From the NCBI GenBank assembly GCA_000002445.1, contig CP000070.1, forward strand, positions 736,001-800,000: a DNA stretch of 64,000 nucleotides, given 5' to 3'. Origin of the DNA: Trypanosoma brucei. Its lineage: Eukaryota. The position numbers and the translations under genes were made by a program. The notes under the pieces are model-generated. The model searched no databases. It was not told the DNA's origin and worked only from the letters and a program-made list of their open reading frames with translations. This document shows, piece by piece, positions 996-42,071 of the stretch. The first letter of the stretch is position 1, and each line of letters opens with the position of its first letter.

Positions 996-1571
<576 letters not shown>

Positions 1572-1904: not shown

Positions 1905-2480
<576 letters not shown>

Positions 2481-2812: not shown

Positions 2813-3388
<576 letters not shown>

Positions 3389-3721: not shown

Positions 3722-4297
<576 letters not shown>

Positions 4298-4635
4298 ATA
4301 GAGTAACTCACAGTCGGTCTGGTGAATATCCCGCGACCTGGAAATAGTTAGATGCCTATGCGGATCCCTCACTGCATCCCTTACGGGATTGTTGCGAGTG
4401 AGCCCGCAAACTGTTTACTTCACTCCCTTTTTTTTCTTGTTTTTTCTTGATTGTGTGTGTTGTTGGCACTTTTGTCCACAAATCACATTCACCATTTTCT
4501 CAATAATTGTTGTGTGGCTCGGTTGTATTTATCGACAATGTGTGCCTCCATTTGTGTGAGGTGGTGCGGACTTGCCGTGTGCGGACAAATATATTTTTTA
4601 TTAGCTTTTCCTTTTTTTCTTTTTTTTTTTAGGTC

Positions 4636-6648
4636 ATGTTTACATCTTTTTTAATAGTTTTAAATTTTTTTAGCAATTTTTCAATGTTGTTATATAATGC
4701 TTTTCAATATTTTGGTGCCTTATCATTTCACAATGAAATATTATTAATATTTGTTTTAGTTTTTTTTTCTGCTGCTGGCGTCGTGCTTTCCGAAGTCTGT
4801 AGAGTTGTAAATTTTTATTTTTCGAGTGGTGGCTCTGTTTTTGTGGAACGCCGTATATCTGTTTATTTGTCTACACATGTTGTGATAGCTGTCTGTGATC
4901 GTAATGCTTTGTTACAGAATGCTATATTTTATTATATGTACGAGAAGTTCCTTGTGTCACCTGTTGGCTCATCGTGTTGGCGTAACATGTCGTCTGTTAT
5001 CTTGCTAATTGATCCGATGCGTAGTGCGTATGAGGAGAGTTATGATTCTCCTTTTCGTGTGGATGATGATGATTCTGATGACGCTGGGCGGTGGGAAAGT
5101 GTGAACTGGAGGTGTCAAAAGCAACTTCGCCGTTTTTTTATTATTAGGGTCCCCACGGATGGATGTTGGTTGCCTGTGGGAAATGATGGTGTGGAGCTGA
5201 CGTATGAGAGGAAACGGGAGACAGTGGATGGCTCTGAGGGTGTTGTTCGGACTATTGTGTTACGGGCGAAAGGTGCCACAGATGCGGCAACTAGGATTGA
5301 CAAATTTGTTGAAACCGCCTTAGATTATTACATAATGAATTTGCCTGATGTAATGAACGAAGGAAAAGTATTTCTTGAGCTTCAGGCACCTTCTTCGTGT
5401 CGTGACGAGGGCGGCCTGTTATTCAAACGGTACCCCCTTGGTTGTGGAAAAACGTTTGATACTCTTTTTTTTCCTGAGAAATCACGCGTCCTTAAGTTGC
5501 TTGACGACTTCATGGGGAAAGGGGGAAGATTTTCGACAGAGGGTTTTCCTCAGAAGTTGGGGTTTCTACTCTATGGACCGCCTGGTACTGGCAAAACGTC
5601 GTTTGTGGGAGCCCTTGCCGAGTATACGCGTCGTCATGTTATATCTATTCATCTTCCCTTCTTGAAGTCGAATCACTCGCTCTATGACGTTTTCTTAAAT
5701 CCCACGTTTCGTTGCATCGGCGAGTCTGACCCTACTTCTTTGGCTGTCGAGGATGTCATTTTCCTCCTTGATGACGTGGATGCCTCTTCCCCACTTGTGC
5801 GTGCTCGTGTGCGTTCTGGACGGACCATTTGTAGGCGGCACCACGCCACGTTGGTATCGGACGGTTCTGTTGCTGATGACTTTGTGGGTGTTGAATCGCC
5901 GGTTCTCGATTCCGAGGTGGATGAGGAGGAGGGTGAGCATGGTGGGTTAGCCCCTGAACCGGAAAACCCAGTGGATCTTGTAAACCAGTTGTTGAAAGCT
6001 ACGTTCGGAAAACGATATACAGGAAAAGTAGGGACAACGAGGGGCGGCGCCGAGAATGAAACATCACTGTTAAAGTGGCTTCGGCCATCGGATGAGCTCA
6101 ACTTATCCGGTTTGTTGAACGTACTGGACGGCGCCGTGGACACACCAGGGCGTATCGTCGTGATGATCACAAATTTCCCAGAAAGACTTGACCCTGCGCT
6201 GGTGCGACCAGGCCGGTTCGGCACGAAGTTGCGTATGGATTACTTGCAACTGCCAGCTCTTTTGGATATGCTCGGTCTACACTTTGGCGCTGTGCTCCGT
6301 GAGAGCGGCGAAAGCGGGACAGATGAGAGTAGTGATGGTAATGATAACGCCGGCGGGGGAGTCAGCCAGCCACTTCGTGCAATTCGAACGTTTGAGAGAG
6401 GGGAGGCAGACAGCGTAAACACCTCAGCACCCCCAAAGCTCAGTGCTTACGATGTGGCGCGCGTGCGTGATGTTGTTGCAGCGCTCAACGACAGTCGAAA
6501 GGGTCGGGAAGGCGAAGACGTTTCAGGTCTCATGATATCTCCTGCCGAGGTGGAATCAATGTGCGCGGTTTCAACGACACTTGATGAGTTTCTTTTGCGC
6601 TTCTCGAGTCGGTTTGGTGCGCCACAGGCTTCTGCCAACGTGCAGTGA
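4636..6648 (+). CDS. AAA+ ATPase, BCS1-like (mitochondrial chaperone BCS1 family), with an N-terminal TM anchor and a large acidic insertion
   Basis: Walker A LLYGPPGTGKTSFVGALAE; Walker B VIFLLDDVDA. BCS1-type sensor region SGLLNVLDGAVDTPGRIVVMITNFPERLDPALVRPGRFG. N-terminal hydrophobic segment ILLIFVLVFFSAAGVVL. Preceded by a T-rich polyY tract and AG at 4600-4631. The start could be a downstream Met (e.g. 4684). Confidence 0.75.
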   Translation: MFTSFLIVLNFFSNFSMLLYNAFQYFGALSFHNEILLIFVLVFFSAAGVVLSEVCRVVNFYFSSGGSVFVERRISVYLSTHVVIAVCDRNALLQNAIFYYMYEKFLVSPVGSSCWRNMSSVILLIDPMRSAYEESYDSPFRVDDDDSDDAGRWESVNWRCQKQLRRFFIIRVPTDGCWLPVGNDGVELTYERKRETVDGSEGVVRTIVLRAKGATDAATRIDKFVETALDYYIMNLPDVMNEGKVFLELQAPSSCRDEGGLLFKRYPLGCGKTFDTLFFPEKSRVLKLLDDFMGKGGRFSTEGFPQKLGFLLYGPPGTGKTSFVGALAEYTRRHVISIHLPFLKSNHSLYDVFLNPTFRCIGESDPTSLAVEDVIFLLDDVDASSPLVRARVRSGRTICRRHHATLVSDGSVADDFVGVESPVLDSEVDEEEGEHGGLAPEPENPVDLVNQLLKATFGKRYTGKVGTTRGGAENETSLLKWLRPSDELNLSGLLNVLDGAVDTPGRIVVMITNFPERLDPALVRPGRFGTKLRMDYLQLPALLDMLGLHFGAVLRESGESGTDESSDGNDNAGGGVSQPLRAIRTFERGEADSVNTSAPPKLSAYDVARVRDVVAALNDSRKGREGEDVSGLMISPAEVESMCAVSTTLDEFLLRFSSRFGAPQASANVQ

Positions 6649-11267: not shown

Positions 11268-12549
11268 TTATGTATCCCCTCAGCGAAAAACATTCTGTAT
11301 GAACGGTGGTTGTTCCGATTGTTAGGAATGGGGTTGGTGGGGGGACGTTTCACATGCGTGGCAATCGTCCCTCTTATTATTCCTCCTCGTAAACTCCACT
11401 GCCCATCTGAGGCATTGCCCCAAGAACCATATTTCTGGACGTGGTAAGCGCATGTGAACAAAAGGGACGATATCATCTCCATCAGGTGAGGATATTCTCT
11501 TTTCTACGAATCATGGATATGCGAGGGAGACAATAACGGATAAACTTACCGACGTCACCACTCACTTTAGGAAAATGGCAGTTGCGGAGATGTTAAAGGC
11601 CCAAGCATGTTTTCTACCTTTTCCTTTTAAAAAAAGAACGGAATATGAGAGGGAAAATAAACGGAAAGGGGGTAAGAGCCTCAGTTCAAGGGAGAAGAGA
11701 ATACTAGACCTCTTTTAACACCCTGATGTACAGCATCACCGCCACCGACTTTCAGCCGCAGGTTTTTCCCTTCCCTCACTTGTCGTGGCGAAAATTGTGT
11801 GTGGCTACAATGGAGCAAGGTAACTTGCACCGCATGTTTCTCATTTTGAAAGGATTGTTGGCATTAATATTGCTTTCTCGTTTTGTTTTGTTGTTACAAT
11901 ACAGAGCCTCTGCACCGAGGCGACTTATGAGTGTGTGTTTTACATAAAAATATGTGCATGTCTTCGTCACCCTGCTGCTCCCAGTGAAAGAATGCGTCCT
12001 GTAGGGTAAAACCCTGAAGTAGTCCGTGACTTTGCCACTCTCTTAGATCACAGTTGTTAATTATTAAATTATCTACTGACATGGCTGCTCCTACATGAAG
12101 TAAGGGTAGAGATCAAATAGTTTATAATAAAATACTTCTCGTAAACACTTGCTTGCTTTTTGCGTGTTACAAACCTGTCTTCACCAAGGAAAAAAAGTCA
12201 CTCAATCTTGTTATTCTCATTAGTCTTTCGACACCCCTTCATTTTGAGGAAACAACGAATCATTACGATTTCTTTATTTATATTGTAGACAATTGCTCCC
12301 TCATTCAAGTCCTATGCATGATCTACAATTTTCTCGGATCTCTTCCACATTTCACAGAAGGGTCACGTCACGAAGGAGAACATGTGTATGCATACCGGTT
12401 CACTGCCGCTTTGTCAAATACGTACTGTGTTTTTGTACTAGCACCCAAACTCTTCCCTTCCCTTTATCCTTCTCTCTGCCCCAGTGTCATTTTAAGCAAC
12501 AAAGACTAACCAAACAGGAATATTAATATATCTTACAAACGTTTTCACC

Positions 12550-13122
12550 ATGCGCCGGTCTGTATATCAGCTAAGCAAGGAACTCCCAATCTCTGAGGAC
12601 GAGGTTGCGTGTCTGGTGAAGAAGGTGATGCGTGAATGCCCATCAGCCTTCAATTCCCAATCCTCACGTGCTGTGATCCTCTTTGGAGAGCAACACACAA
12701 AGCTATGGAACCTAACGAAGGATAAGCTAAAGGCGACAGTGAAACCCGATTCCTACAATGAGGCCGCCAAGAAGATTGATGGGTGCTTCGCCCCCGCTGC
12801 CGGTACCATATTGTTTTTCGAGGATAAAAGTGTTGTTGAAGGACTTGTCAAGTCGTACCCCGCATACGCAGAAGGTTTCCCAGTGTGGTCAACTGAATCA
12901 TCAGGTATGGCTCAATTCGCCGTGTGGACAGCACTTGCAGAAAAAGGTATCGGTGCGTCTCTGCAGCACTACACATCACTGATCGGTGAGGCGGTGACGG
13001 CGGAGTGGAAGCTTCCGGCAACATGGGAGATGCATGCACAAATGCCATTTGGAAAGCCACTGGAGAAGTGTGGCGAGAAGACGTACATGCCGGATGAAGA
13101 ACGCTTTAAGGTGTTTAAATAA
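12550..13122 (+). CDS. Small nitroreductase-like protein of the Hbn1/Frm2 type (nitroreductase superfamily), paralog A
   Basis: 190 aa. ECPSAFNSQSSRAVILFGEQHTKLWN matches the yeast Hbn1/Frm2 core (PTAFNSQPNRAVILTGETHKKVWD). LQHYTSLIGEAV ~ LQHYNGYIKAAL. C-terminal GEKTYMPDE ~ GEKTYIKND. Same length class as yeast Frm2/Hbn1 (~193 aa). Confidence 0.8.
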   Translation: MRRSVYQLSKELPISEDEVACLVKKVMRECPSAFNSQSSRAVILFGEQHTKLWNLTKDKLKATVKPDSYNEAAKKIDGCFAPAAGTILFFEDKSVVEGLVKSYPAYAEGFPVWSTESSGMAQFAVWTALAEKGIGASLQHYTSLIGEAVTAEWKLPATWEMHAQMPFGKPLEKCGEKTYMPDEERFKVFK

Positions 13123-13952
13123 AGTTCGTTGATATTTTTACCGTACTTGATCACACACATGTATTCCTCCATGGACTGATCTTATTTACACTCTTGGTGT
13201 TATTCACCCTCCTTTAAGCACCAATTTCTTTGCAATACATGCATATACATGTTGGTTTTGGGGCACCTTTATATTGTTATCCAACTGCTTTTTTTGTTCG
13301 CCACGCTTTTCCACTTCTTACCTTTTACACACTAGGTTAATTTGGGCACCGCGTGAGGTTAATATGACCAAATGTATGTTTCTCATGTTTTCCCTTCGTT
13401 TAGCGAGGCAAATGTATTGAAGAAAGTGTCGTGGTTGGGGTAAGTGGTGTTACACGCACGACGTGTTCGTTACCCACCCTTTCCACCCTCTTCTCATGCT
13501 TCTGCACTTCTTTACTTTTTTGTTCATTCGTTTATATACATATATACATATATATTTACGTGTTCTGGCTTCTACGATTTTTAAAAAACACGTATCGCTA
13601 TAATTATAAGCGTGTACGCACTTATTTTTTTGTTATCGCTCTATATACATGTGGTGCATAATACAAGGTGTCTCATTATCACTAGAGGTTTCTTAGGTAC
13701 CGTACCCCGGTCATGTAGCATGATGTAGAGGGATGAGAGTCGATATGAATATAATAAATGATGCTTGTAAGGATGATTTGACCAACTACCGCTTTCGTAC
13801 ACGTGTGTATTTTTGCATGCTTGTGTTTTATCTGCTTTGTTTATTGTAACCCATTTAAATCATATTTTTTTGTTCACTTCTGTTGTCTTTTTGTCACTGT
13901 TGAATTGTTCCCATTGAGTTAGCTGAATTTCATTGGTTTTTGGAGTTATCAC

Positions 13953-14138
13953 ATGATGTACGTGCTTGTAGCCGTGGCCATGTTGGCAATATTCTTCGCA
14001 GCTTTAGTGCTGTTTTTACGCGGTAAGTTATCTGCTGGATCAGTTGCCACGAGCAACGGTGGAATTGGCAGTGATTCTGGGCTGATGCCCGGTGAGTCAG
14101 TCACTACGAGAGTTCGTCGTGCTCGGAAGGAGGAATAA
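13953..14138 (+). CDS. Small ORF (61 aa) encoding a single-pass TM peptide with a charged C-terminal tail; hypothetical
   Basis: MMYVLVAVAMLAIFFAALVLFLRGKLS...RVRRARKEE. Sits in a 1.66-kb intergenic space with an upstream polyY tract (ttttttgttcacttctgttgtctttttgtcactg) and is conserved identically in the duplicate (26622..26807). There is no independent evidence of expression. Confidence 0.25.
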   Translation: MMYVLVAVAMLAIFFAALVLFLRGKLSAGSVATSNGGIGSDSGLMPGESVTTRVRRARKEE

Positions 14139-14468
14139 CGATTATCATCCAACAGTGAATATGAGCGGTTGGTGGCGCCTCAGGTGACACGGTTTGTTCG
14201 CAAGATTCGTGCCGCCGCGTTATTTGTTTCCGATTGAGCGCATATGCCGCAGTTAGGTAAATGTTCGGTTGGTGTTGCTGTGGATCTACTGATGTGATCT
14301 GTTGTTGTTGTGTTGTTTTTGAAGAACATTTTTTTAAATACCTTATATTTGTTTTTAATTCTCTCTTCCTTTTTTGTTACACTAATGTGGCCGTAAAGCA
14401 TCCTTAATTAATATTTTGGTTGCCATTGTTAGGTGTCTCCGCAGTTATGTTTACTGTTGGTAATGAAA

Positions 14469-14490
14469 CTATTCTTATTATTATTATTAT
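14469..14490 (+). repeat. (TTA)7 microsatellite; (TTA)5 with ttcttatta in the duplicate at ~27133
   Basis: ttattattattattattattattc vs ttcttattattattattattc; this is the only length polymorphism of its kind between the duplicated segments. Confidence 0.9.
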
Positions 14491-14782
14491 TATTATTCTT
14501 TTTCTATCCCTTGGCCTTCACCATTATCTTTTTTTTCTTACTTTTGTGACTTCTATGTTTTCAATGGCTACTCAACCTCCCTCCACAGCAGTGCTGTGAT
14601 CTTATCATTTCTCCTGCAAATCCCTGCCGTACATTGTGGTGCTTTCTATATTCTGTCGGCGGAAGCACTCGTGGTAAAAGAGGGGGTAGGGAAAGAGGGA
14701 AACGTGACGAAAGAAGTGGATAGCGTTGAATAACTTGAGAGGCACAATTGTGGAGAGGTTAGATACGAAAGAGTAGTGGAGG

Positions 14783-15721
14783 GTGGGGATCATGTCAAAC
14801 CCACCTAAGCACTACAGTGTGGAGTCATTGCGGACGGTTGGGCTTCTGCCTGCGCAACTGGCCTTGTCCCGTAAGCCACGTCTTCGCCCACACGTAGGTA
14901 ATCTCAAGGGTCTTGTTTACCCTCTACCGTATTACGCAATGTGGCGTGGTAATCACAACAAATACACATATAACAAAAGCACTGTGTGTCTATGGGGAGA
15001 AGGCGATACCCGTTCCATGTACCATCAACATTATGCTCATGCAAAGTGCCCGACGGACTACGGGCGTGGTGGAAGAGAATTTGAATACCTTACAGTGAAG
15101 CGTGGTAAGATGTTACAGAAACCGCTACCGCGGGTGCAATACGTGGCGGAAGGGTCCAAGCCGGTGTGGCTCTTCAAGTCGTGGCATACGCCTCTCAGCT
15201 CACCAAGCATGTGGGAACGAGAGGTTCAGTACGCCGAGCATACACCAGAGCATATTGGTGCCAAGCGGCCGCTTGCAGTAGTCGCACCACGTACAATGCA
15301 TCGCTACCTGTTTCTTATGCATATGGAAAAGGTGACCATTACTGTATCCCCTCTGTTGTTTGGTTATGGTCACACCATACAGAAAGCTGTGTTGGATTTC
15401 TACCGCCGTGCTATAAGTGCTCGCTCTCCATTCCCAAAGGATAAAGTGTTTCTCTTTTATGCCATTGATCACATTACACCTCGTATTGAAGTGACATGGC
15501 TGGATGGGACGTCATATGTTCCACCTGTGTTGGAGGGTGCAAGTTCGCAAGACCTCATTCAGATGGTGATGGAAGAGGCTTGGTTGGCTGCAGATCGCAT
15601 GGCTGCGGAAGGCCGTGTGCTCAATCCGTTAGCAATTGACGATTATAAGTGGGATCAGTTGGTTGTGTTTAAAAAGGTACGGGATAAGGAAGCGAGCAAG
15701 GGTGGTGGCAGAAAGAAGTAA
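14783..15721 (+). CDS. Conserved hypothetical protein (312 aa), basic C-terminus; paralog A
   Basis: Long ORF with coding-like composition and an identical copy at 27449..28387. Ends in a basic KKVRDKEASKGGGRKK tail. No recognisable domain by eye; it could be an organellar/ribosome-associated protein. Confidence 0.6.
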   Translation: MGIMSNPPKHYSVESLRTVGLLPAQLALSRKPRLRPHVGNLKGLVYPLPYYAMWRGNHNKYTYNKSTVCLWGEGDTRSMYHQHYAHAKCPTDYGRGGREFEYLTVKRGKMLQKPLPRVQYVAEGSKPVWLFKSWHTPLSSPSMWEREVQYAEHTPEHIGAKRPLAVVAPRTMHRYLFLMHMEKVTITVSPLLFGYGHTIQKAVLDFYRRAISARSPFPKDKVFLFYAIDHITPRIEVTWLDGTSYVPPVLEGASSQDLIQMVMEEAWLAADRMAAEGRVLNPLAIDDYKWDQLVVFKKVRDKEASKGGGRKK

Positions 15722-17376
15722 GGGATAGGAATTTGTTTGGGTTAGGGGTGGTGGCACCGTGGCCGATTTTTATTTTCCAGTTGTGGTTGTTGTTTTATGG
15801 TACCTCACTTACCCCTTTCCTTTAATTCACAGCTCTTACCGTAGTGTAACTCCTTGTTTTTGCACTTTACGCCAGGTGTGGATGTTGAGTGTTACATTGG
15901 GTTGGTCATTGCCATGCTGATATATATGTGTGCTTTCATTGAAAGTTCATACGGATACTAATATCTTTTCTTTTCATTTACGTTATCACGATATGACGGT
16001 GGTGTTTGTGCCGTTATTGTATTTTGCATCGTGTATGATCCCTTTTCATTTCTCTCTTTCCTCTTTTTCCTCTATTTCACAACACTACTTTAACCTACCG
16101 ACTGACCGAAGTTTAGTGAAGAGGATTGAAACACGACAGGATTAAGCAAAAGGAAAGAAACAGGAAACAGTGTAAGGTGGAAAGGTAGAGTTGTAGGAGG
16201 GACCAAGAAAACGTGTTTGGGCGAAAGGGAAGTTGGGGATTTCTGCATTAAAGGGGAAGTAATGTTTGGCTTTTCAAATTGATTTGTTGGAATTTTGTTT
16301 TTGTGCAAGGTGTGTTGCCGTGTCACTATGTTTATAATGGAGGCTAATTCTATGGGTGCTTGCCTTGTTTGTGCAATCTTTTCCATTTCGTGTTGTATCT
16401 GATCTTATGAACTTCGTCTGGTTTATCCGCTAATAACGTTGTTAATGTAAATGGCAACCATGCGTCGCCCTTTCGGTTTTAAAAAAAACGAACAACTATA
16501 TTCTTTGCCCTTGGTATTTCCATTCCTCAATTTCTCTTTTCTTTTTGTCGCCTTCTCTAGGTGTAGTAAACGCACCGGACTACGCGAAATATAAGACGAC
16601 GGAGGGAAAGAGGATTACATACACGCTACACGAAGGAAAGGGCTTATCATTATTAATTTTCGTGCATTACTTTATTTATCCCGATTTCTCATTCCCCTCT
16701 TTCGTTAGCACCTCCTCTTCCCCTCCCCTTGAGAGTGAAGGGAAGGGAGGTAACGGGTGATTACCAACTGTTTTCGGTGTGACGTGGCCGATCCACCCGT
16801 GTAAGGAACCGGCTTTCACTTTGAGAGACTCTAACGTTCCCGTGTTGGGTCTAAGGAGGGAGGAAACCGGTAGCGACGGGGTATTTAAGACAACTACTTT
16901 TTTTGCGGTAAAAGTGGGCTGGACGTTAGGAAGAAGACGAAGAGGAACCGTGCGTAAAAAAGGTTGTTGTGAGTGAGGTTCCGCTATAGAGGCTAAATAA
17001 GGGTGAGGAGGGTTGTAGGCCCGAAGGGTAGTTGGGTGCTGTGTCACCTGCAGGGAGGAGGTGCGACTACAATTTCGTCAATAGCATCGCTAGTGTTAGT
17101 TACGTTTAGTGTAAAGGCAGAACTGTTTCTAGGGATTGGACTCCGCTAGAACAACGGAACGTGAAGAGTTGCATTTACACAACTCAGTGAGAATTGAGGG
17201 TTGAGGACCCGACGAGAAACCTACGGAGCCGGGGAAAAGAAATCAGTTGCCACAGAACGTTATTTTCATACCCACCATATACTACAGTTTTCCTTAATAT
17301 ATTATTGACTGTTTTTTTTTTTTTAAAGCTACCCAACGACGTGGGTTTCGACTCCTGATAGATTGCAGCCTCTTGC

Positions 17377-21423: not shown

Positions 21424-22694
21424 TGCCGGTCTGTCGCTATGGTGCAAAATGCCTTTCCGCAACTTTTCTGAGGTGCCGTATTTGTCAGCAGATTTATGTC
21501 CTCACTCCTCGCTTTTCTTTTATTTCCCACGCTGCGTGTTTTGTCCTCTTTTCACTCTTTCTCTTTTTTTTTTTTGCAGCTACGTGGGCCTAGGTCGTGA
21601 AAGTGACAAAGAGTTCCTCAGTAATTTCCGATTCGTTACATTTTCCCACTTCTTTCCTTATGTTCCAGTCGGTACACATCTTTTTTACCCTTTGGTTTGT
21701 TTACCGTGCTCGTTCAGCCTGTGTGTGCGTATTTGCATTTGGTGAGCTGGGGAGGCGGGGGCCTGGCGGTAATTTTTTCATGTAATAAAAAATGATGGAA
21801 TACATAGTTCTGAGAGAAGTACAGGGTCGACAACGGGGGAGAACGAGACTTCTATGCATAAAGTTTCTTTTTTCAGGGGAGTCGATTTACATTGGAGCGA
21901 AGTTGTGGTGGAGAGAAAAAGGGATATGGTTAGAGTAACGATGTAAACACAAAGAAAGCACGCTTCTGCACGGCACGAAGAGTGGGTTGAAGGGTCCCAT
22001 ATCGTCGGTGGGTGGATTTCGAGGGTTATACGAGTCGATGAACGCGGTTGTCCGATAGTTTGTCCACTACACTATCAAGATATTACAGCGGAAGGAAAGA
22101 GAGAAGTTGGAGAAAAGCGTAGTAAATTAAAGTGTAACGGAGTCAGTGATCGGGTTGTACCATTACTATCATTATTTTGCTACCGCTATTACACAAGTGT
22201 CCCAGTGGTTTTCGTTTGCTATTTGATTCTTTTAGCTGTTCATCCCCCCTTGACCTTCTTCACTCCCCTTCCCAAGGGGTCGCGGAAGGTCAGGTGTGGG
22301 AAGTTATCAAAACTTTCTTTGTTTGGTGTGAACCATGGGAGTAAAGGAGTGGTGGCGGAGCGGGGAAACAGGGAACAAGCTGTTCTCGTGTATTCCTGTT
22401 TTCTTGTCCTCTTATGGTAACGTGTGTTATTTTCGTTCTGTGAAGGCATGCGGGTGAGCACAAGAATGCCCAAATACAAAGAGATGTGCACATGTACACA
22501 CTCTATGCAACACTTTATTTGTGATTGCGGCCACTTCATCCAAAACCAACTGCCCCAATCGCTACACTAAAACTACCGTGTTGTGCGGGTGTATCTCACT
22601 TCTGTCAGGTCATCCTTTTCTTCCTCTGCATTCTCTCCACCTGTGGTGAGCAGTATTTCGGTGGTTGGTTATACATAAACACATATATTAGAAG

Positions 22695-24965
22695 GTGATA
22701 ACGCAGCACCGAAGGGAGTATGAAATGAAGTTCCACCTTCAAAGCGTGCTCTTAATGGCACTGGACGTGGTTAAAGGGCCTTACCTCAGTTGCTTTGCAC
22801 CAGTTAACCCAGTTGAACAAGGAGGGGACGACCAACCTCGTGATGTACAAGGTGACGTAAACAAGGATAGCAGCAGGAACAAAGACATGTTGCACCTTCC
22901 AACGAATGCTGGCCGTTTTAAAGCATTTAGCGATGTCTTTGTGCCGAAATCTGAGTTCTGCCGTCGCGTAATGTGCCTGGTGGAAGCTGAGTCCGGAATC
23001 CTGTACTTGTTTTATCCAGAAGAGATATCTGGTGTCCACTATGAACGAAAAACATTGCGGTACACACTGTGCTTCGCCTTTGCCGTTGACACCAATCTTG
23101 TCACGGCTACTGCAGCGACGGTAGAGCGGCTTCTCCGACCGTATAGCTTTGTCTTGACGAGAATCGTAGAGGGGCTTCGCGAAGCGGAGCAGCGCTCCGG
23201 TTACATGTCTCGCGGCCTTTCCCACAGGCTTTCTACGCATTGTCCCAGCCGTGGAGATTGCCAACAGCAGCAGTCGAAAAATGACCTGATCGGCCAGCCC
23301 TCTCGCAGTGATTTTCACGAATATGGTGGTGGGGTAAGTGCTGAAATACACAGCGTGGTAGGTACAACGTCTTTTGCTTCCCCACCAACCGGGGACGAAG
23401 CGCTCTTTAGGTATGCCAAGGGAACGTCACGGGTCAACGTTTTCTTAACACCACCTCAGGATTCCTCCGGGATGCAGTGGACATCTCTCGAGGCGCTAAT
23501 GGGGGAACTCTTCACGTTTTTAGGAACTGACCCAAAGGAGGGTGAAACTAAGTGCCCGCGACCATGGGCGACAGAAAATACCGTTTCCTTAAGGTTGTGC
23601 GAAACGTTCTTCATTCCCGTGGGTCACAGGGCGCCACCCCATCTACCCCAGCAGCACGCCCTCGATGAAGTGCCCGTTCCCGTAGCCGCGTATGAGCCGG
23701 AGGTATTTGAACACGTGGATTTAGTTATGCACGACGTTTTTAGGATTGTTGATGGGAGGCGTACAATTCGCCAAATTGTACAGGTACTCGCTGCGGAGTG
23801 CGAACGGTACGAAGACAGTGATGAGCTACTCCAAAGGCAAGGACGTATATTTTCTCCCGCAAGCAGCCAGTGTGCTATACATTCGGTATTCGCGCATTCG
23901 CTGCATCCTGTGAACTTTCCCGGAAGCAGGAGCGCCCCGGAGGTTGGCGGTCTCGCATCATCAACTGCGTCAACAAATGCACATCCCAGGGATGCCTTGA
24001 ATACGCAGCGGGCAACCCCTGGGTTGCTCTCCCCGCCGTCAGCAGCAGATATATGTCTTACGTCCCCGTTCCCAAACACAGTATGCTCTGGTACGTGCTT
24101 CAGCGCTCCCACGGTATGCACGTGGTCGAGAACCCTACAGACGTCCCGGTACCTCCCCGAGCGGCAGAATGCTGAAGAAGCAGCAAACAACTCCATCAGC
24201 GACAAGCTCAGCGTTTGGTGTGAGTTGGAGTTACTGGTTGTTGAGGCTCTCCAGCACTTGGAGGTGCACAACTACGTGAAGATCATTCGACCCATTAAAA
24301 TGAAGTACACCTACTTCGCAACGAACGCACTATACTCAATAATGTCCGACAGAAGCAGTCCTGCACGGCAGCTACTAGGAAAACGTATGCTTCTTGTGGA
24401 ATACATGTTTCACAAAGAGAAGGGACAACGCACCAGCTTACAGGGCTCCTCAGGCAATCAGAAGCGACTGCAAGAACTTGCTCCAGAGTACAGAAAAAAT
24501 TTGGAGGGTCTCAACTCTGCAACCCGTCTTACCCCGCCACTGGCTCCACTTAGCGCACATGATAAGGGAGTTGCGGTGGATGATGAAATATCCAGGGAAC
24601 AGCAGTATCATATAAAGCGGGAGCGTTCCAGCGACACTGCTTTGCCGTGTTCCACCTCACTGAGACACAGTTCTACAGAGTGTCTTCAGGATGGGGATTC
24701 ATCACACGATGACGTGGATGTGACTCCAGCCGCGGAAACAAATCCAGATAGACATGAGGCGACCTACACTGAGGTTCTCATTAACATGGCAGCTGCCGCG
24801 GCTCTCTGTGCGCTCGGTAAATTCAGTGGCTCCACAATTTTCAGTGTACAGAGGGATATGCAAGGACACCCTCAGTGGTCGAATGCCTTTGCTAACTGGG
24901 AAGAAAGCTGCTGCAAATCATTGGTCGAAATAGCCATAATTAACGGTTGGCTGGTTGCTCAATGA
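22695..24965 (+). CDS. NPRL2/Npr2-like protein (GATOR1/SEACIT subunit-like) with kinetoplastid-specific low-complexity insertions
   Basis: N-terminal longin-like region [22 protein letters not shown] ~ NPRL2 [40 protein letters not shown] ~ [32 protein letters not shown] ~ [36 protein letters not shown] ~ [20 protein letters not shown]. Alignments were done by eye only. The start could be Met 22725 (MKFHLQ). Confidence 0.45.
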   Translation: [756 protein letters not shown]

Positions 24966-25226
24966 ACTGTACCATAAGTTGTTCAGACGATTGGTTACAG
25001 CAAAGGTACGGTACACTATACATTCCTGCACATCAAGGGTCACATCACGAAGGAGAGCATGTGTATGCATACCGGTTCACTGCCGCTTTGTCAAATACGT
25101 ACTGTGTTTTTGTACTAGCACCCAAACTCTTCCCTTCCCTTTATCCTTCTCTCTGCCCCAGTGTCATTTTAAGCAACAAAGACTAACCAAACAGGAATAT
25201 TAATATATCTTACAAACGTTTTCACC

Positions 25227-25799
25227 ATGCGCCGGTCTGTATATCAGCTAAGCAAGGAACTCCCAATCTCTGAGGACGAGGTTGCGTGTCTGGTGAAGAA
25301 GGTGATGCGTGAATGCCCATCAGCCTTCAATTCCCAATCCTCACGTGCTGTGATCCTCTTTGGAGAGCAACACACAAAGCTATGGAACCTAACGAAGGAT
25401 AAGCTAAAGGCGACAGTGAAACCCGATTCCTACAATGAGGCCGCCAAGAAGATTGATGGGTGCTTCGCCCCCGCTGCCGGTACCATATTGTTTTTGGAGG
25501 ATAAAAGTGTTGTTGAAGGACTTGTCAAGTCGTACCCCGCATACGCAGAAGGTTTCCCAGTGTGGTCAACTGAATCATCAGGTATGGCTCAATTCGCCGT
25601 GTGGACAGCACTTGCAGAAAAAGGTATCGGTGCGTCTCTGCAGCACTACACATCACTGATCGGTGAGGCGGTGACGGCGGAGTGGAAGCTTCCGGCAACA
25701 TGGGAGATGCATGCACAAATGCCATTTGGAAAGCCACTGGAGAAGTGTGGCGAGAAGACGTACATGCCGGATGAAGAACGCTTTAAGGTGTTTAAATAA
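25227..25799 (+). CDS. Small nitroreductase-like protein of the Hbn1/Frm2 type, paralog B
   Basis: Identical to paralog A except for one substitution (ILFFEDK -> ILFLEDK; ttc->ttg). Confidence 0.8.
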   Translation: MRRSVYQLSKELPISEDEVACLVKKVMRECPSAFNSQSSRAVILFGEQHTKLWNLTKDKLKATVKPDSYNEAAKKIDGCFAPAAGTILFLEDKSVVEGLVKSYPAYAEGFPVWSTESSGMAQFAVWTALAEKGIGASLQHYTSLIGEAVTAEWKLPATWEMHAQMPFGKPLEKCGEKTYMPDEERFKVFK

Positions 25800-26621
25800 A
25801 GTTCGTTGATATTTTTACCGTACTTGATCACACACATGTATTCCTCCATGGACTGATCTTATTTACACTCTTGGTGTTATTCACCCTCCTTTAAGCACCA
25901 ATTTCTTTGCAATACATGCATATACATGTTGGTTTTGGGGCACCTTTATATTGTTATCCAACTGCTTTTTTTGTTCGCCACGCTTTTCCACTTCTTACCT
26001 TTTACACACTAGGTTAATTTGGGCACCACGTGAGGTTAATATGAACAAATGTATGTTTCTCATGTTTTCCCTTCGTTTAGCGAGGCAAATGTATTGAAGA
26101 AAGTGTCGTGGTTGGGGTAAGTGGTGTTACACGCACGACGTGTTCGTTACCCACCCTTTCCACCCTCTTCTCATGCTTCTGCACTTCTTTACTTTTTTGT
26201 TCATTCGTTTATATACATATATATTTACGTGTTCTGGCTTCTACGATTTTTAAAAAACACGTATCGCTATAATTATAAGCGTGTACGCACTTATTTTTTT
26301 GTTATCGCTCTATATACATGTGGTGCATAATACAAGGTGTCTCATTATCACTAGAGGTTTCTTAGGTACCGTACCCCGGTCATGTAGCATGATGTAGAGG
26401 GATGAGAGTCGATATGAATATAATAAATGATGCTTGTAAGGATGATTTGACCAACTACCGCTTTCGTACACGTGTGTATTTTTGCATGCTTGTGTTTTAT
26501 CTGCTTTGTTTATTGTAACCCATTTAAATCATATTTTTTTGTTCACTTCTGTTGTCTTTTTGTCACTGTTGAATTGTTCCCATTGAGTTAGCTGAATTTC
26601 ATTGGTTTTTGGAGTTATCAC

Positions 26622-26807
26622 ATGATGTACGTGCTTGTAGCCGTGGCCATGTTGGCAATATTCTTCGCAGCTTTAGTGCTGTTTTTACGCGGTAAGTTAT
26701 CTGCTGGATCAGTTGCCACGAGCAACGGTGGAATTGGCAGTGATTCTGGGCTGATGCCCGGTGAGTCAGTCACTACGAGAGTTCGTCGTGCTCGGAAGGA
26801 GGAATAA
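26622..26807 (+). CDS. Small ORF (61 aa) TM peptide, duplicate copy
   Basis: Identical to 13953..14138. Confidence 0.25.
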   Translation: MMYVLVAVAMLAIFFAALVLFLRGKLSAGSVATSNGGIGSDSGLMPGESVTTRVRRARKEE

Positions 26808-27448
26808 CGATTATCATCCAACAGTGAATATGAGCGGTTGGTGGCGCCTCAGGTGACACGGTTTGTTCGCAAGATTCGTGCCGCCGCGTTATTTGTTTCC
26901 GATTGAGCGCATATGCCGCAGTTAGGTAAATGTTCGGTTGGTGTTGCTGTGGATCTACTGATGTGATCTGTTGTTGTTGTGTTGTTTTTGAAGAACATTT
27001 TTTTAAATACCTTATATTTGTTTTTAATTCTCTCTTCCTTTTTTGTTACACTAATGTGGCCGTAAAGCATCCTTAATTAATATTTTGGTTGCCATTGTTA
27101 GGTGTCTCCGCAGTTATGTTTACTGTTGGTAATGAAACTATTCTTCTTATTATTATTATTATTCTTTTTCTATCCCTTGGCCTTCACCATTATCTTTTTT
27201 TTCTTACTTTTGTGACTTCTATGTTTTCAATGGCTACTCAACCTCCCTCCGCAGCAGTGCTGTGATCTTATCATTTCTCCTGCAAATCCCTGCCGTACAT
27301 TGTGGTGCTTTCTATATTCTGTCGGCGGAAGCACTCGTGGTAAAAGAGGGGGTAGGGAAAGAGGGAAACGTGACGAAAGAAGTGGATAGCGTTGAATAAC
27401 TTGAGAGGCACAATTGTGGAGAGGTTAGATACGAAAGAGTAGTGGAGG

Positions 27449-28387
27449 GTGGGGATCATGTCAAACCCACCTAAGCACTACAGTGTGGAGTCATTGCGGA
27501 CGGTTGGGCTTCTGCCTGCGCAACTGGCCTTGTCCCGTAAGCCACGTCTTCGCCCACACGTAGGTAATCTCAAGGGTCTTGTTTACCCTCTACCGTATTA
27601 CGCAATGTGGCGTGGTAATCACAACAAATACACATATAACAAAAGCACTGTGTGTCTATGGGGAGAAGGCGATACCCGTTCCATGTACCATCAACATTAT
27701 GCTCATGCAAAGTGCCCGACGGACTACGGGCGTGGTGGAAGAGAATTTGAATACCTTACAGTGAAGCGTGGTAAGATGTTACAGAAACCGCTACCGCGGG
27801 TGCAATACGTGGCGGAAGGGTCCAAGCCGGTGTGGCTCTTCAAGTCGTGGCATACGCCTCTCAGCTCACCAAGCATGTGGGAACGAGAGGTTCAGTACGC
27901 CGAGCATACACCAGAGCATATTGGTGCCAAGCGGCCGCTTGCAGTAGTCGCACCACGTACAATGCATCGCTACCTGTTTCTTATGCATATGGAAAAGGTG
28001 ACCATTACTGTATCCCCTCTGTTGTTTGGTTATGGTCACACCATACAGAAAGCTGTGTTGGATTTCTACCGCCGTGCTATAAGTGCTCGCTCTCCATTCC
28101 CAAAGGATAAAGTGTTTCTCTTTTATGCCATTGATCACATTACACCTCGTATTGAAGTGACATGGCTGGATGGGACGTCATATGTTCCACCTGTGTTGGA
28201 GGGTGCAAGTTCGCAAGACCTCATTCAGATGGTGATGGAAGAGGCTTGGTTGGCTGCAGATCGCATGGCTGCGGAAGGCCGTGTGCTCAATCCGTTAGCA
28301 ATTGACGATTATAAGTGGGATCAGTTGGTTGTGTTTAAAAAGGTACGGGATAAGGAAGCGAGCAAGGGTGGTGGCAGAAAGAAGTAA
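27449..28387 (+). CDS. Conserved hypothetical protein (312 aa), paralog B
   Basis: Protein identical to 14783..15721. Confidence 0.6.
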   Translation: MGIMSNPPKHYSVESLRTVGLLPAQLALSRKPRLRPHVGNLKGLVYPLPYYAMWRGNHNKYTYNKSTVCLWGEGDTRSMYHQHYAHAKCPTDYGRGGREFEYLTVKRGKMLQKPLPRVQYVAEGSKPVWLFKSWHTPLSSPSMWEREVQYAEHTPEHIGAKRPLAVVAPRTMHRYLFLMHMEKVTITVSPLLFGYGHTIQKAVLDFYRRAISARSPFPKDKVFLFYAIDHITPRIEVTWLDGTSYVPPVLEGASSQDLIQMVMEEAWLAADRMAAEGRVLNPLAIDDYKWDQLVVFKKVRDKEASKGGGRKK

Positions 28388-29162
28388 GGGATAGGAATTT
28401 GTTTGGGTTAGGGGTGGTGGCACCGTGGCCGATTTTTATTTTCCAGTTGTGGTTGTTGTTTTATGGTACCTCACTTACCCCTTTCCTTTAATTCACAGCT
28501 CTTACCGTAGTGTAACTCCTTGTTTTTGCACTTTACGCCAGGTGTGGATGTTGAGTGTTACATTGGGTTGGTCATTGCCATGCTGATATATATGTGTGCT
28601 TTCATTGAAAGTTCATACGGATACTAATATCTTTTCTTTTCATTTACGTTATCACGATATGACGGTGGTGTTTGTGCCGTTATTGTATTTTGCATCGTGT
28701 ATGATCCCTTTTCATTTCTCTCTTTCCTCTTTTTCCTCTATTTCACAACACTACTTTAACCTACCGACTGACCGAAGTTTAGTGAAGAGGATTGAAACAC
28801 GACAGGATTAAGCAAAAGGAAAGAAACAGGAAACAGTGTAAGGTGGAAAGGTAGAGTTGTAGGAGGGACCAAGAAAACGTGTTTGGGCGAAAGGGAAGTT
28901 GGGGATTTCAGGAGGTGAACTCAGGAGCAACATATATATATATCTTTGTTTTTGTGTGCGAGGGTGTTGATCGTTTGGGGAAGCGGGAAGGAGCTGCTAA
29001 GAGTTACTTCTTCGTTTCTTGAGGCAGAATCCTACTCTAGGGTTTGCTATCTTATCTGAGGGGAGGAGGCGACTTCCCGGATAGTGAAGGAGGAAAGAAA
29101 ATTATTGGTTGAAGTTAAGGAGAGTGATTGCATACACAGGGTCAAGTAGGAAACTGTCCTAG

Positions 29163-31070
29163 ATGATTGACCCATTTCGCTCTTCTTTTAGTGGTAGCAC
29201 CCCCTTCAATGGTGGTGCTATAGATCAACTGCAACACATGCAGCAACCTGTGTTTTCGCTTCACTCGGAGCCACTTCCTCCGTTGGTTAGCAACGTGGGA
29301 GCTAGTCATAACGGCGGTGTTGAAGAAAATACAACGCTGCATATGACTGTCACGGAGGAGGTGGACGCGTTTGATGAAGGCCAGTTGGAGAAACTTCGTA
29401 GGACGCTGCAGTTGTTGGAGGGTATTTCGCAAGGGCGTCACGCTGTGGATTGGAAAGGCCTTATCAATCCTAGCAAACCAGTGGAGTCGGCCAAAAACGT
29501 GAGCTCGATGTTAGCTAGGCCCACAACCCTTCCTAGCGCCATTGAATGTGTTGCAAAATGTATCACAACACCGGAACATTTGTCTATTGTTGCCAAGCTC
29601 GACCAGCCTTTCAGGTCTCAGGTGCGGGACGCCGTGCTCCAAGAGCTCCTCAATACACTAACCACGGAACGGGATCCGCCACCAATGCCCGTCTGCTCAG
29701 AGATGCTAGCGGAAATGGTTCAGTTGAACCTTGTTGTTCTCCGGGGTGTATCGCGGACACTGGAGACGTTACTGAGTGATACAAACACGCGGCGAGCAGC
29801 AATTGCCGTCTTAGGGAAGTTGGCTGACCGTAGCCGCGGTGATGCCGTTTTTGCACGGGCTGTGCAGAACCTTGAGCCGTTAGTGCGAGCTATTAACGAT
29901 ACGGAGTATGAATACGACCGTGTAGCAATTGCCCGACTTCTAAGGTGGGGCGGATCGGAAAGGGAAGCATCACTGGTGCTGGAGAGGATCATAGCGTCGC
30001 AGCCGCAGCAATATCAGGTAACCTCTATGGCATATATTGGCCAACGCGACGAGCTTGCTTCTGCCACATGCGACGGGTCGGTTGTTATTTGGGGGAGCCC
30101 CAACGCCGTGAGTAAAGAGGTCCGCCCAGCGACAAGCATAGACCTACCACAGAACTATGTGCCTGTAGCATTGGAGGCTCCGCCGAATGGTAGCTACATG
30201 GTAGTTGCCGGCATGCCGATTTCTTTAGCCAGTCAACAGGCCATGATGAAGGCGAGTGGGAGCGGCATCAGTGGCCACAACTGGGAGAAGAGGCGACAAG
30301 CTTCACCAAGTCGGGTGAGGGCACCTCTTCTTCGCTTTCTCACTTGTAATGAGGGAACTGGGGTGTGGATGAGTGGCGACACCACAATGCGGAAAGAGAA
30401 TACCGCACTGACTGCGGCGGTTGCGCTACCAAATATGGTGGTATGCACTGCAGAGAGCTACCCATCCGAGCGATCGTCGGAAGCGGGCATACAGCACAAT
30501 CTAGTTTTACTCAACGGTTGCGCGCCTCAACCTCTAGGTGTTTTTGAAGGAGCTCACGAGGACTACATTACTGTGCTTCGTGTTGGCGATGAGAGCGGTC
30601 ATACGCTGTTCACTGGATCCCGCGACTGTGTGGTGAAAATGTGGGACATTCGGAGTAATTCGACTCGATCCGTCTTCTCTCTAGGATCTGCAACAGCTCC
30701 ACATGCCGAGATACCGCTTCACCGTCTAGAGAATGCCCACACTGATACCGTTACGTCAATTTTCCCCCATCGCAAAGTGCTGCTTACGGCTTCCCTAGAC
30801 GGAAATCTCCTCATGTGGGACATTCGGCAGTTGTGTGCGCCAGTGCATGAAATGCAGCTGCATTCACCCATCCTGGATGTTGCCCCTGCAAGTGGTGGAT
30901 TCATGGTGGTCTCGACTGCGCGGAGTCTCAACTTACTATCGCTAGAGACGCTAAAGTTTCATGACATTGTGCCGAATGTGTCGTACACCCAACTGCGCAC
31001 AAACTTTGATGGTCGGGTTATGTTTGGCGCGGGTGGTACCGGCGTTAGTGTGTATTCCGTGAGAGACTGA
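29163..31070 (+). CDS. WD40-repeat protein (C-terminal WD repeats; N-terminal ~300 aa helical region)
   Basis: WD-type segments GSRDCVVKMWDIRS, LLTASLDGNLLMWDIRQL and VVIWGSPN. Long uninterrupted ORF with coding-like codon usage. Confidence 0.6.
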   Translation: MIDPFRSSFSGSTPFNGGAIDQLQHMQQPVFSLHSEPLPPLVSNVGASHNGGVEENTTLHMTVTEEVDAFDEGQLEKLRRTLQLLEGISQGRHAVDWKGLINPSKPVESAKNVSSMLARPTTLPSAIECVAKCITTPEHLSIVAKLDQPFRSQVRDAVLQELLNTLTTERDPPPMPVCSEMLAEMVQLNLVVLRGVSRTLETLLSDTNTRRAAIAVLGKLADRSRGDAVFARAVQNLEPLVRAINDTEYEYDRVAIARLLRWGGSEREASLVLERIIASQPQQYQVTSMAYIGQRDELASATCDGSVVIWGSPNAVSKEVRPATSIDLPQNYVPVALEAPPNGSYMVVAGMPISLASQQAMMKASGSGISGHNWEKRRQASPSRVRAPLLRFLTCNEGTGVWMSGDTTMRKENTALTAAVALPNMVVCTAESYPSERSSEAGIQHNLVLLNGCAPQPLGVFEGAHEDYITVLRVGDESGHTLFTGSRDCVVKMWDIRSNSTRSVFSLGSATAPHAEIPLHRLENAHTDTVTSIFPHRKVLLTASLDGNLLMWDIRQLCAPVHEMQLHSPILDVAPASGGFMVVSTARSLNLLSLETLKFHDIVPNVSYTQLRTNFDGRVMFGAGGTGVSVYSVRD

Positions 31071-31721: not shown

Positions 31722-32159
31722 TGCTCGTGTTTTAAAGTGGGATTGTATGGCGTTATGGGTTACACACGTCTCTCCGCCACTTGTGCCTCAAAATATTGAA
31801 AGTTCACACGTCATTTCCCCCTAACCCTTTCTATATTTCTCCATAAGCGTGATGGAGGGGAAATGTGAAGTACTGAGGAAACTACTCGGTTCATTCCATT
31901 TTTTTTTCCATCTCCATTACTTCTCTCTTTGTTTTTCCCCGTCACACATTGCTGCCTTTATTTCCGTTTCTTCACTTCACTTTACTATATTATCGTGTCA
32001 ATCGTTGACTGCTGCAGGCGCTCCGACAGCTGAAGTTGACCACGTAATTTTTTTCTTTATTGGATAGCGTTTGAGGTGTGATTATGAAGCAAGGAAAAGG
32101 AAACAAAAAATAGTGCAGGTTGGGCGGGGGTAAGTGAGGAGTGTGAAGACACATTTATA

Positions 32160-32196
32160 TATATATATATATATTTATTTATTTATATTTATATAA
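32160..32196. repeat. (AT)n / (ATTT)n AT-rich microsatellite
   Basis: atatatatatatatatttatttatttatatttatata. Confidence 0.85.
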
Positions 32197-32548
32197 GAGA
32201 TTAAAGACGAATAATAAATGAAAGCCAAGATGAAAAGTGGAGGCGAAAAGGTGAAAACAAACAGCAACGCGGGGGCACGTGAGAATAAAGAATTGGATAT
32301 GCGCTACCCAATGGGCAAACTAGACAAGATGATGAAAGTAGTGAAAGAAAATGAATGCATGAATTCATGGGATGAGAAAAAAAAAATAAGGGCATACATA
32401 CAGCACACCATTTTTTTTGTTCTTTTTTTTTTTTTTACTTATTGTTTTTGTTATCACTTCGTATAAAATCTTTTTTTTTTTTTTGAGGGACTCTCAAACG
32501 CTTAGGTGAAGGTGATGGAGGTGAAGGTGTGAAGGAGGTTTGCGCGCG

Positions 32549-32551
<3 letters not shown>

Positions 32552-32629
<78 letters not shown>

Positions 32630-32630
32630 G
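32552..32630. repeat. Compound microsatellite (AT)16(GT)~21
   Basis: catatatatatatatatatatatatatatatatat gtgtgtgtgtgtgtgtgtgtgtgtgtgtgtgtgtgtgtgtgtgcgtgtg. Confidence 0.95.
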
Positions 32631-32867
32631 AAGGCGGGGGAAACGAGAAACAAAAATAAGAAGAGAGACAGAATGAGGGGAATAAGGGGGAGGATAATGG
32701 TATGAAGTGTGTGTTGGGCTTTCTGTGTCTCTGCAATCGTTTATTTTGTGAAGTTTGTTTCCTGCTGAGAAGAGAAAGGAAAAGGAAGGTTTGAAAAGGG
32801 AATGGGGAAAATGAGACAAAATGCATCAGTGAGGTCAAACTTGAGTTGAGTGGGATATGGCAGTCAG

Positions 32868-32913
32868 GCAAAGCAAAGCAAAGCAAAATGAAATGAAATG
32901 AAATGAACGGCAA
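32868..32913. repeat. Tandem pentanucleotide repeats (CAAAG)4 then (AAATG)4
   Basis: gcaaagcaaagcaaagcaaagcaaaatgaaatgaaatgaaatgaa. Confidence 0.9.
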
Positions 32914-34141
32914 ATAATAAACTCCGTATCATAATATATCTTTGCTTAGAAGATATGTCTATTCTCCTATATCTCTCTCCCCTTTTTTCCTTTTTTCCTT
33001 TTCCTTGCTTTTCATTTTTTTTCTTTTTCTACCCCCTTGCGGTGTTTTTTCCATGGGGGTGGCGGGTAATGGGCAAGCGATTTTTATGTTTTTTTTTTTT
33101 AGAAAGTAATTTGAGTGGGTGCACGTGAAAGTAATAATGGGCACATACAGGAGAAGGTGAAACTAACGTGAAGCACGTTGTGGTAGCATAAAAAAAAATT
33201 ACATATTTATGTATCGAGCGGGTGTGAGTTGTGAAATCTCTGAGGAGTTTTTTTTTTCAAATTCTGTGGGACGATATGGCGGGTACTATTCTTATGGGAA
33301 AGGAGAGAATTGATGATGGGAGAAAGGTGAAACAAAGAGGGGAAAAAAGAGCAGGGCATGCCTTTCACACATGTTTTTGTGTGTTTGTTTTCTTTTTCTG
33401 TTTGTTTGTTTCGTTCGTCAAGTATTCCTCACTTTTTTCATTGTGTCCGCGTAAGGGATCCCTCTTTTTTTTTTCTTTTTTTTCTTTTTAGGATGGAAAG
33501 GGGAGCAAGAAGGTTGTCTGTCCCCTCAGTTTCCTTTACTAGTCATCACCTTTATCAAATGTGTCTCTTTTTCTTGTTCGTTTTTTTCCCCCCTTTGAAC
33601 AGCACACATACAGGGTTTATGAGGAATACGCCAAGTGCACTGAGACATTTGAGGAAGGAAGGAAGAATGAAAGGGGGGAAGGAAAAAAGAGGGATGAAAT
33701 AAATAAATGAATGAATAAAAGAACAAGAAGGAAAACAGAGGAAAACGTATTAGGTGGGTTTTGTCTTCTCCTCATTTACTTACGCGTTTTTACTTTTACT
33801 CCCGTTGTTTGGTAATGAGAGCACTTCGCTTCGCTTCCGCATGATCAGGAGTACGTCACCTTTAAGCAATTACTCACAAAACATATATGTATGTTTTTAT
33901 ATACATACCTGCGCGCATACGTTTTCCCTCCTGCACTCAAAAAAAAAAAAACAGCAACTTTTGTTTCACTTTTGACAATACTTAGTATATCCCAGTGAAC
34001 AGACCGCGCCTCGCTGTGTTGGCCGATTTTCCGTCCTCGCCTGTTTTTGTCACTATCGTTATTAACTGTCGCGCCCCACCCGCGTGTATGTTTCGGGTCC
34101 GAAGGCTTGCTGGGTTTATACAATGTTCCCCATGCGGAAAG

Positions 34142-41913: not shown

Positions 41914-41992
41914 GGTATTAATTCCAGAGTGAGTTGAAGGTACATCACTACACTTTGTACACAATCGGGTGGATGTATGTTTGCAGTTATTT

Positions 41993-42004
41993 GCGTCTGT
42001 GTCT

Positions 42005-42070
<66 letters not shown>
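41993..42070. repeat. (TCTGTG)3 + (TG)~29 microsatellite
   Basis: gtctgtgtctgtgtctgtgtgtgtgtgtg...; ~58 bp of pure GT repeat starting immediately 3' of the transporter CDS. Confidence 0.95.

Positions 42071-42071
<1 letters not shown>

Follow-up and report, generated by a model that had tools for sequence, protein, structure and literature searches.

The protein encoded by Tb927.7.3010 of Trypanosoma brucei is almost certainly an orthologue of NPRL2 (Npr2 in yeast), and it probably serves as the subunit that carries the arginine finger in a GATOR1-like GTPase-activating protein (GAP) complex for Rag GTPases. The gene lies in a stretch of 64,000 nucleotides (nt) of contig CP000070.1 (positions 736,001 to 800,000 of the forward strand), which was analysed as a whole and is called the window hereafter; positions below are those of the window, and features are on the + strand unless stated otherwise. 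The orthology is derived from profile, alignment and fold comparisons. Complex membership and GAP activity are taken from homology and from the statement that RAG and GATOR1 are present in Trypanosoma (Tatebe and Shiozaki, 2017, PMC5745459). The coding sequence (CDS) occupies 22725..24965 (746 amino acids (aa) and the stop codon). It is assigned as NPRL2/Npr2 from its open reading frame (ORF), its identity to a database protein and a Pfam NPR2 match above the cut-off. The 746-aa translation is identical over the full length to XP_845924.1 (Q57YB1) of T. b. brucei TREU927, and the window accordingly belongs to chromosome 7.

The identification itself was already known. The product of Tb927.7.3010 is named 'nitrogen permease regulator 2, putative' (PMC5879877), and UniProt and NCBI give the same product name to the T. 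brucei and T. equiperdum proteins. The original prediction, which was made from the sequence alone and called the product NPRL2-like, is thus a correct rediscovery of an automatically derived annotation. The present analysis contributes evidence on the C-lobe and the arginine finger, excludes NPRL3 and maps the inserts.

Family assignment

A search with the Pfam NPR2 profile (PF06218), which had been proposed together with the original prediction, gave a match of 31.9 bits against the gathering cut-off of 27.5 bits (E 7.8e-8). In the alignment, residues 74-368 of the ORF, counted as 756 aa from an in-frame GTG, are placed on profile positions 42-247 of 440. NPR2 was matched by all of the nine Trypanosoma orthologues (Pfam, E <= 1). 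When 1.84 billion representatives were searched exhaustively by profile, 38 relatives were obtained. Those of near-canonical length (397, 475 and 623 aa) are detected by the Trypanosoma profile with E values of 2e-10 to 1e-31, and they match Pfam NPR2 with 45-59 bits.

Two profiles were prepared for the comparison with known structures. Profile A1 consists of Trypanosoma sequences only, and profile A2 is an alignment of 14 euglenozoan-type sequences, in which trypanosomatid orthologues are combined with assembly-derived relatives. The three best matches of A2 in the PDB are human NPRL2 (6ces_N and 8fw5_B, E 5.7e-5 and 6.4e-5) and yeast Npr2 (8adl_S, E 0.0098). The alignment of A2 with human NPRL2 by hhalign has a probability of 92.3% and an E value of 5.6e-7. 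It extends over 253 columns, from residues 5-544 of the T. brucei protein to residues 7-259 of NPRL2, and the identity over these columns is about 20%. The human query sequences were checked: NPRL2 is identical to chain N of 6CES, and NPRL3 was verified against chain M of 6CES. The profile match, the hhalign alignment, and the fold matches and conserved arginine described below bear out the NPRL2-like call.

Fold, conserved blocks and arginine finger

A model was built with AlphaFold2 (AF2) from the A2 alignment. When the full model was compared with the PDB by Foldseek, the 13 best matches were all chains of GATOR1 or SEACIT (best E 3.2e-7). The top five are NPRL2/Npr2 chains, and below them chains of NPRL3/Npr3 are mixed with more NPRL2 chains. 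The confident blocks of the model are residues 1-28, 59-169, 249-371 (with a short loop at 270-284), 490-575 and 678-746. They give the two-lobe architecture of the family, in which a longin domain at the N-terminus is combined with a C-lobe that consists of two small helix/strand subdomains. The C-lobe common to the solved NPRL2/Npr2 structures is present, and its C-terminal subdomain is recognised by fold only.

The longin domain of the N-lobe (residues 1-169, 22725..23231) is broken by insert A (residues 29-58, 22809-22898). It was delimited from the AF2 model, from Foldseek and from the hhalign alignment to NPRL2 7-116. Five strands form a sheet accompanied by helices; the modelled elements are strands 4-14, 18-25, 83-87, 92-102 and 110-120, followed by the helix 130-170. 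The predicted local distance difference test score (pLDDT) of these elements is 70-90. In Foldseek the domain is closest to NPRL2/Npr2, followed by other longin domains. The middle conserved block (residues 249-371, 23469..23837, pLDDT 72-90) is aligned to human NPRL2 131-219 and contains a short loop insert at residues 270-284. A helix (255-267) is followed by a beta-hairpin region and a second helix, and P317, D332 and G344 are invariant or nearly so in A2. The first subdomain of the C-lobe (residues 490-575, 24192..24449) is composed of a helix, strands and helices, and the C-terminal subdomain comprises residues 678-746 (24756..24962).

The original prediction had named four blocks shared with NPRL2. 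According to hhalign, the longin N-terminus, the Y-x-R-x-x-L-x-x-x-L-x-F block (residues 106-119) and the DG-R-x-I block (residues 343-348) all fall within the alignment to human NPRL2. The fourth, a C-terminal helical block, corresponds to the C-terminal subdomain and was verified by structure only. Human NPRL2 (6CES chain N, 8FW5 chain B) has the same order of longin domain, middle beta-hairpin/helix block and C-lobe of two subdomains. It also shares the motifs Y-x-R-x-x-L, D-V-P and I-D-G-x-R-x-I and a catalytic arginine on a loop of the longin domain. The human protein, however, is 380 aa long against 746 aa in T. brucei, and is devoid of the T. brucei inserts.

In GATOR1 and in yeast SEACIT, the catalytic arginine finger is located on the longin loop, as Arg78 of NPRL2 and Arg84 of Npr2, respectively (PMC10316081, PMC9646525, PMC8534245). 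In the profile alignments, the T. brucei segment HYERKTLRY (ehYdRktLrY in the profile) is aligned with the human R78 segment and with IYARNFFSF of yeast, and R108 is placed opposite R78 and R84. Arg108 (codon 23046..23048) is therefore the predicted arginine finger. This stretch is the block written as Y-R-L-x-x-x-L-x-F in the original prediction. Y106 and R108 are among the 12 invariant columns of the 14 sequences in A2, and in the AF2 model R108 is found in the loop that connects strands 92-102 and 110-120. We infer that Arg108 is the catalytic residue. The retention of the catalytic arginine is the best available argument for a Rag GAP subunit that still works.

Disordered inserts

The pLDDT falls below 50 at residues 29-58, 170-248, 270-284, 372-489 and 576-677. 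Thus four or five intrinsically disordered, fast-evolving inserts are present, which make up about 44% of the protein and roughly double its length compared with human NPRL2. They are located within the longin domain, after the longin helix, in a short loop, before the C-lobe and between the C-lobe subdomains. Insert B (residues 170-248, 23232..23468) contains a QQQQ run and 30% S/T/P; its pLDDT is about 30, it is a gap against NPRL2 in hhalign, and its identity among trypanosomes is 33-38%. Insert D (residues 372-489, 23838..24191) contains 34% S/T/P, against 22% in the whole protein. Its pLDDT is 25-30, it falls in the gap between NPRL2 residues 219 and 220, and it has 18-21% identity to T. 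cruzi, T. grayi and T. rangeli. Insert E (residues 576-677, 24450..24755, pLDDT < 50) is charged and serine-rich, with 15% identity to T. cruzi. The long inserts of the original prediction, one described as Q/S-rich and one as rich in S/T/P, are accordingly found. The S/T/P-rich one, given there as about 150 aa, is 118-143 aa long depending on the choice of boundaries.

Between T. brucei and T. cruzi, the identity is 77% in the N-terminal part, 63% in the longin domain and 56% in the C-terminal part. It is 35-40% in the middle blocks (residues 249-371 and 490-575) and 3-38% in the inserts, and the insert lengths differ between species. Purifying selection is seen on the folded blocks and not on the inserts. 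In this family inserts are no exception: Npr2 of yeast (SEACIT, 8ADL chain S; 615 aa, of which 402 residues are modelled) carries an S/T/P-rich insert of its own where insert B is found in T. brucei. Between the two proteins the inserts are unrelated in sequence, however, and that of T. brucei has extra ones inside the longin domain as well as between the subdomains of the C-lobe. In the simplest reading, the inserts are most likely tolerated flexible loops. Lineage-specific regulation by the inserts, through phosphorylation or turnover, is possible, and nothing found here speaks for it.

Orthologues in other kinetoplastids

In other trypanosomatids the orthologues are far longer. The lengths are 1,444 aa in Phytomonas, 1,879 aa in Novymonas, 1,828-2,000 aa in Leishmania, 2,133 aa in Leptomonas and 2,431 aa in another relative. 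Examples from these groups and from Bodo are LdCL_220015300 of L. donovani (1,946 aa), KPI89438.1 of Leptomonas seymouri (2,133 aa) and CUI14856.1 of Bodo saltans (1,116 aa). The Trypanosoma profile detects them with E values of about 1e-118 (Phytomonas), 1e-101 to 1e-112 (Leishmaniinae) and 9e-38 (Bodo). Like the T. brucei protein, they have the conserved blocks HYQRKTLRYSLC, with the arginine, and LVDGVRTVADLV, and the C-terminal block with LVEVAVLNNWL. They differ in their far longer inserts, which bring the proteins to 1.1-2.4 kaa; the share of inserts is estimated at about 80% in Leishmaniinae. In Leishmaniinae, Phytomonas and Bodo alike, the annotation of these orthologues is 'hypothetical protein'. 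With Pfam NPR2, the Phytomonas protein passes at 30.6 bits, and the four Leishmaniinae proteins tested (4/4) stay below the threshold at 15-21 bits. In LdCL_220015300 (Trypanosoma profile E 3.8e-101; Pfam NPR2 19.7 bits), the arginine motif, the DG-x-R block and the C-terminal block are intact. These 'hypothetical' proteins of 1.8-2.4 kaa in Leishmaniinae, such as LdCL_220015300, are NPRL2 orthologues, and their identification is the most useful by-product of this analysis.

Evaluation of the assignment and alternatives

Several results weigh against the assignment. The similarity to NPRL2 at the level of sequence is weak, and the Pfam NPR2 match covers only positions 42-247 of the 440 in the profile. 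Against the PDB, phmmer with the single protein gave no NPRL2 and only a chance match to eL6, and the Trypanosoma-only profile A1 also gave no NPRL2. The NPRL2/Npr2 matches in the PDB appeared only after more distant euglenozoan sequences from the exhaustive search had been added to the profile. The AF2 model of the whole protein is of low confidence (mean pLDDT 58.6, predicted template modelling score 0.39), so that the relative placement of the domains is unreliable. With the C-lobe alone, Foldseek found nothing, and the C-terminal block alone was not significant in hhalign against NPRL2 (E 0.05-0.1). In the literature searched, no experimental study of Tb927.7.3010 or of a kinetoplastid GATOR1 was found. 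Finally, a BLAST survey (Lypaczewski et al., PMC7901767) reported NPRL2 and NPRL3 as absent from Leishmania (L. donovani), where RagA, RagC, GATOR2 subunits and a weak 80-aa match to DEPDC5 were reported (PMC7901767). For L. donovani, BLAST has most probably overlooked NPRL2: LdCL_220015300 reaches only 19.7 bits with Pfam NPR2, which would account for the miss.

The same survey bears on the question of whether the protein, as a true NPRL2 orthologue, works outside the canonical three-subunit GATOR1. It could, for example, form a homodimer, do without NPRL3 or have a role independent of TOR, and its inserts could provide new interactions. The reported lack of NPRL3 and the short DEPDC5 match in Leishmania (PMC7901767) would fit such a role, as would the large proportion of inserts, with orthologues of 1.8-2.4 kaa in Leishmaniinae. 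Functions of NPRL2 apart from mTORC1 regulation have also been reported in other organisms (PMC8534245). The survey, however, missed an NPRL2 that is clearly present, so its negatives carry little weight, and GATOR1 and RAG are reported in Trypanosoma (PMC5745459). Moreover, the catalytic arginine and both lobes, including the surfaces of heterodimerisation in the solved complexes, are strongly constrained, and the inserts are poorly conserved even within Trypanosoma. We consider a role outside the canonical complex unlikely.

A related proposal is that the kinetoplastid GATOR1 has been structurally remodelled. The inserts of NPRL2 would then be lineage-specific regulatory or scaffolding modules, phospho-regulated for example during the nutrient shifts of the life cycle, and would perhaps make up for an NPRL3 that is missing or cannot be recognised. 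Specific functions of the inserts are disfavoured by their very low conservation, which is seen even between members of the genus Trypanosoma, and this proposal is rated as rather improbable.

Another longin protein (CCZ1/INTU/HPS4, FLCN/Lst7, SMCR8 or a DENN-like protein) could in principle match NPR2 through the shared longin fold only, since the longin-domain families of guanine nucleotide exchange factors and GAPs are distantly related (PMC3521125). The orthologues P0005, P0007 and P0008 (T. cruzi, T. cruzi marinkellei and T. rangeli) bear the UniRef name 'CCZ1/INTU/HSP4 first Longin domain-containing protein'. This name looks like a mis- or under-annotation, because no such Pfam family was matched at E <= 1 in any orthologue and NPR2 was matched in all. 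The Foldseek matches to the longin domains of FLCN/FNIP and Lst4 are far weaker (E 0.26-2), and the similarity also takes in the middle block and the C-lobe, well outside the longin domain. The explanation by another longin protein is thus largely refuted and has very little probability left.

The paralogue NPRL3/Npr3, which has the same overall fold and comes second among the groups found by fold, is still less probable and largely refuted as the identity of this protein: the hhalign probability of A2 is 0.09% with human NPRL3 against 92.3% with NPRL2, no NPR3 match was obtained in the nine orthologues (Pfam, E <= 1), NPRL2/Npr2 is first in every search, and the catalytic arginine, documented on NPRL2/Npr2, is kept.

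According to these comparisons, the assignment of Tb927.7.3010 to NPRL2 stands, and the protein is an insert-rich but otherwise ordinary representative of a family already known.

Gene model and neighbourhood

The ORF is uninterrupted from 22695 to 24965 on the + strand, and its nominal length of 756 aa is counted from the in-frame GTG at 22695. The first ATG is at 22725; this is the coding start, and the GTG is unused. A candidate trans-splice acceptor was read from the sequence at 22610..22653, with a polypyrimidine tract at about 22610-22642 and AG at 22649-22653. The AG dinucleotides are 72-76 nt 5' of the ATG, and the whole span from tract to AG is about 70-115 nt 5'. Judged by the known trypanosome signal, this would be the expected acceptor of Tb927.7.3010. 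All large ORFs of the window are on the + strand, an arrangement on one strand that is typical of trypanosome polycistronic units. The antisense ORFs 22752-23351 and 23624-24271 (- strand) inside the NPRL2 gene were rejected as shadow ORFs, as they lie within a + strand polycistronic unit.

The protein of the window differs from that of T. equiperdum at one residue. In T. b. gambiense, the orthologue (P0011, 750 aa) departs at 18 positions from P0001, which represents T. equiperdum, and 11 of these positions fall in the disordered inserts. From the TREU927 protein of the window it has 17 differences, and I189 is common to these two. It also carries a C-terminal extension of 4 aa (...VAQSTVP), which implies an altered stop codon.

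The original prediction placed the gene directly upstream of a duplicated segment, and a 3.9-kb duplication was confirmed there. According to blastn, 25035-28909 is 99.5% identical to 12358-16243 over 3,886 nt, and this downstream copy starts 70 nt past the NPRL2 stop codon. Each copy contains a gene of the nitroreductase family (Pfam Nitroreductase), Tb927.7.2980 in the upstream copy and Tb927.7.3020 in the downstream copy (25035..28909; gene identifiers from PMC5879877), and an ORF of 312 aa that has no Pfam match. The arrangement is A-B-A, with a kinesin gene and NPRL2 in the middle. Both nitroreductase genes are about 50-fold up in procyclic forms (PMC5879877).

The only published observation found on Tb927.7.3010 is a 3.74-fold difference between the early and the late procyclic form, obtained from 3' untranslated region (UTR) read mapping (PMC5879877). 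In the same study the early/late procyclic ratios of the nitroreductase genes are 3.47 and 3.16, and Tb927.7.3010 is not in the CDS-based lists (PMC5879877). The gap from the NPRL2 stop to the nitroreductase ATG is 261 nt (24966-25226). The polypyrimidine/AG splice-acceptor tract of the nitroreductase is at about 25128-25162, about 165 nt past the NPRL2 stop, and the 3'UTR of NPRL2 is therefore at most about 165 nt. Because the ratios are nearly equal, the CDS-based lists lack the gene and the acceptor tract is this close, the 3.74-fold difference may be a spill-over of nitroreductase reads rather than a regulation of NPRL2.

Beyond the duplicate, a WD40 gene is located at 29163-31070. Its 635-aa product gave generic WD40 matches only, and no link to GATOR2 was found. 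In P0023, a EukProt gene model of 1,454 aa from a kinetoplastid-type genome, an NPRL2 orthologue is fused directly to a homologue of this WD40 protein. The fusion suggests that the WD40 gene is probably the ancestral downstream neighbour of NPRL2, and that the duplicated nitroreductase segment was inserted between them in T. brucei.

Elsewhere in the window, positions 1-4726 contain a tandem array of at least five units of 909 nt with 98-100% identity and a sixth, degenerate unit with 67-69%. Each 909-nt unit encodes a histone H2A-like protein. A low-GC stretch is located at 32001-34000 (GC 0.376, GC skew +0.27), with an (AT)n(GT)n microsatellite at 32532-32646, and a second long (GT)n run is at about 41990-42070 (region 41945-42081). 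Both are simple repeats in intergenic DNA.

Biological implications

T. brucei has four TOR kinases, and its differentiation is driven by nutrients. By analogy with GATOR1 and SEACIT, Tb927.7.3010 would form a pair with a paralogue of the NPRL3 type by way of the longin domains and the C-lobes, and would dock onto a subunit like DEPDC5/Iml1. Arg108 would then enter the nucleotide pocket of a GTPase like RagA/Gtr1 and stimulate GTP hydrolysis, and TORC1 would be turned down when amino acids are scarce. The link to the switching between glucose and proline made in the original prediction is speculation.

Since the annotation pre-existed, the value of the present result is limited to confirmation and detail, and it is not a discovery. 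The catalytic subunit of the TORC1-restraining Rag GAP is predicted to be kept in T. brucei, together with an intact arginine finger, and R108 is a defined residue for a clean loss-of-function allele. The result supports the idea that amino-acid sensing by Rag and GATOR1 is older than the split of the kinetoplastids from other eukaryotes.

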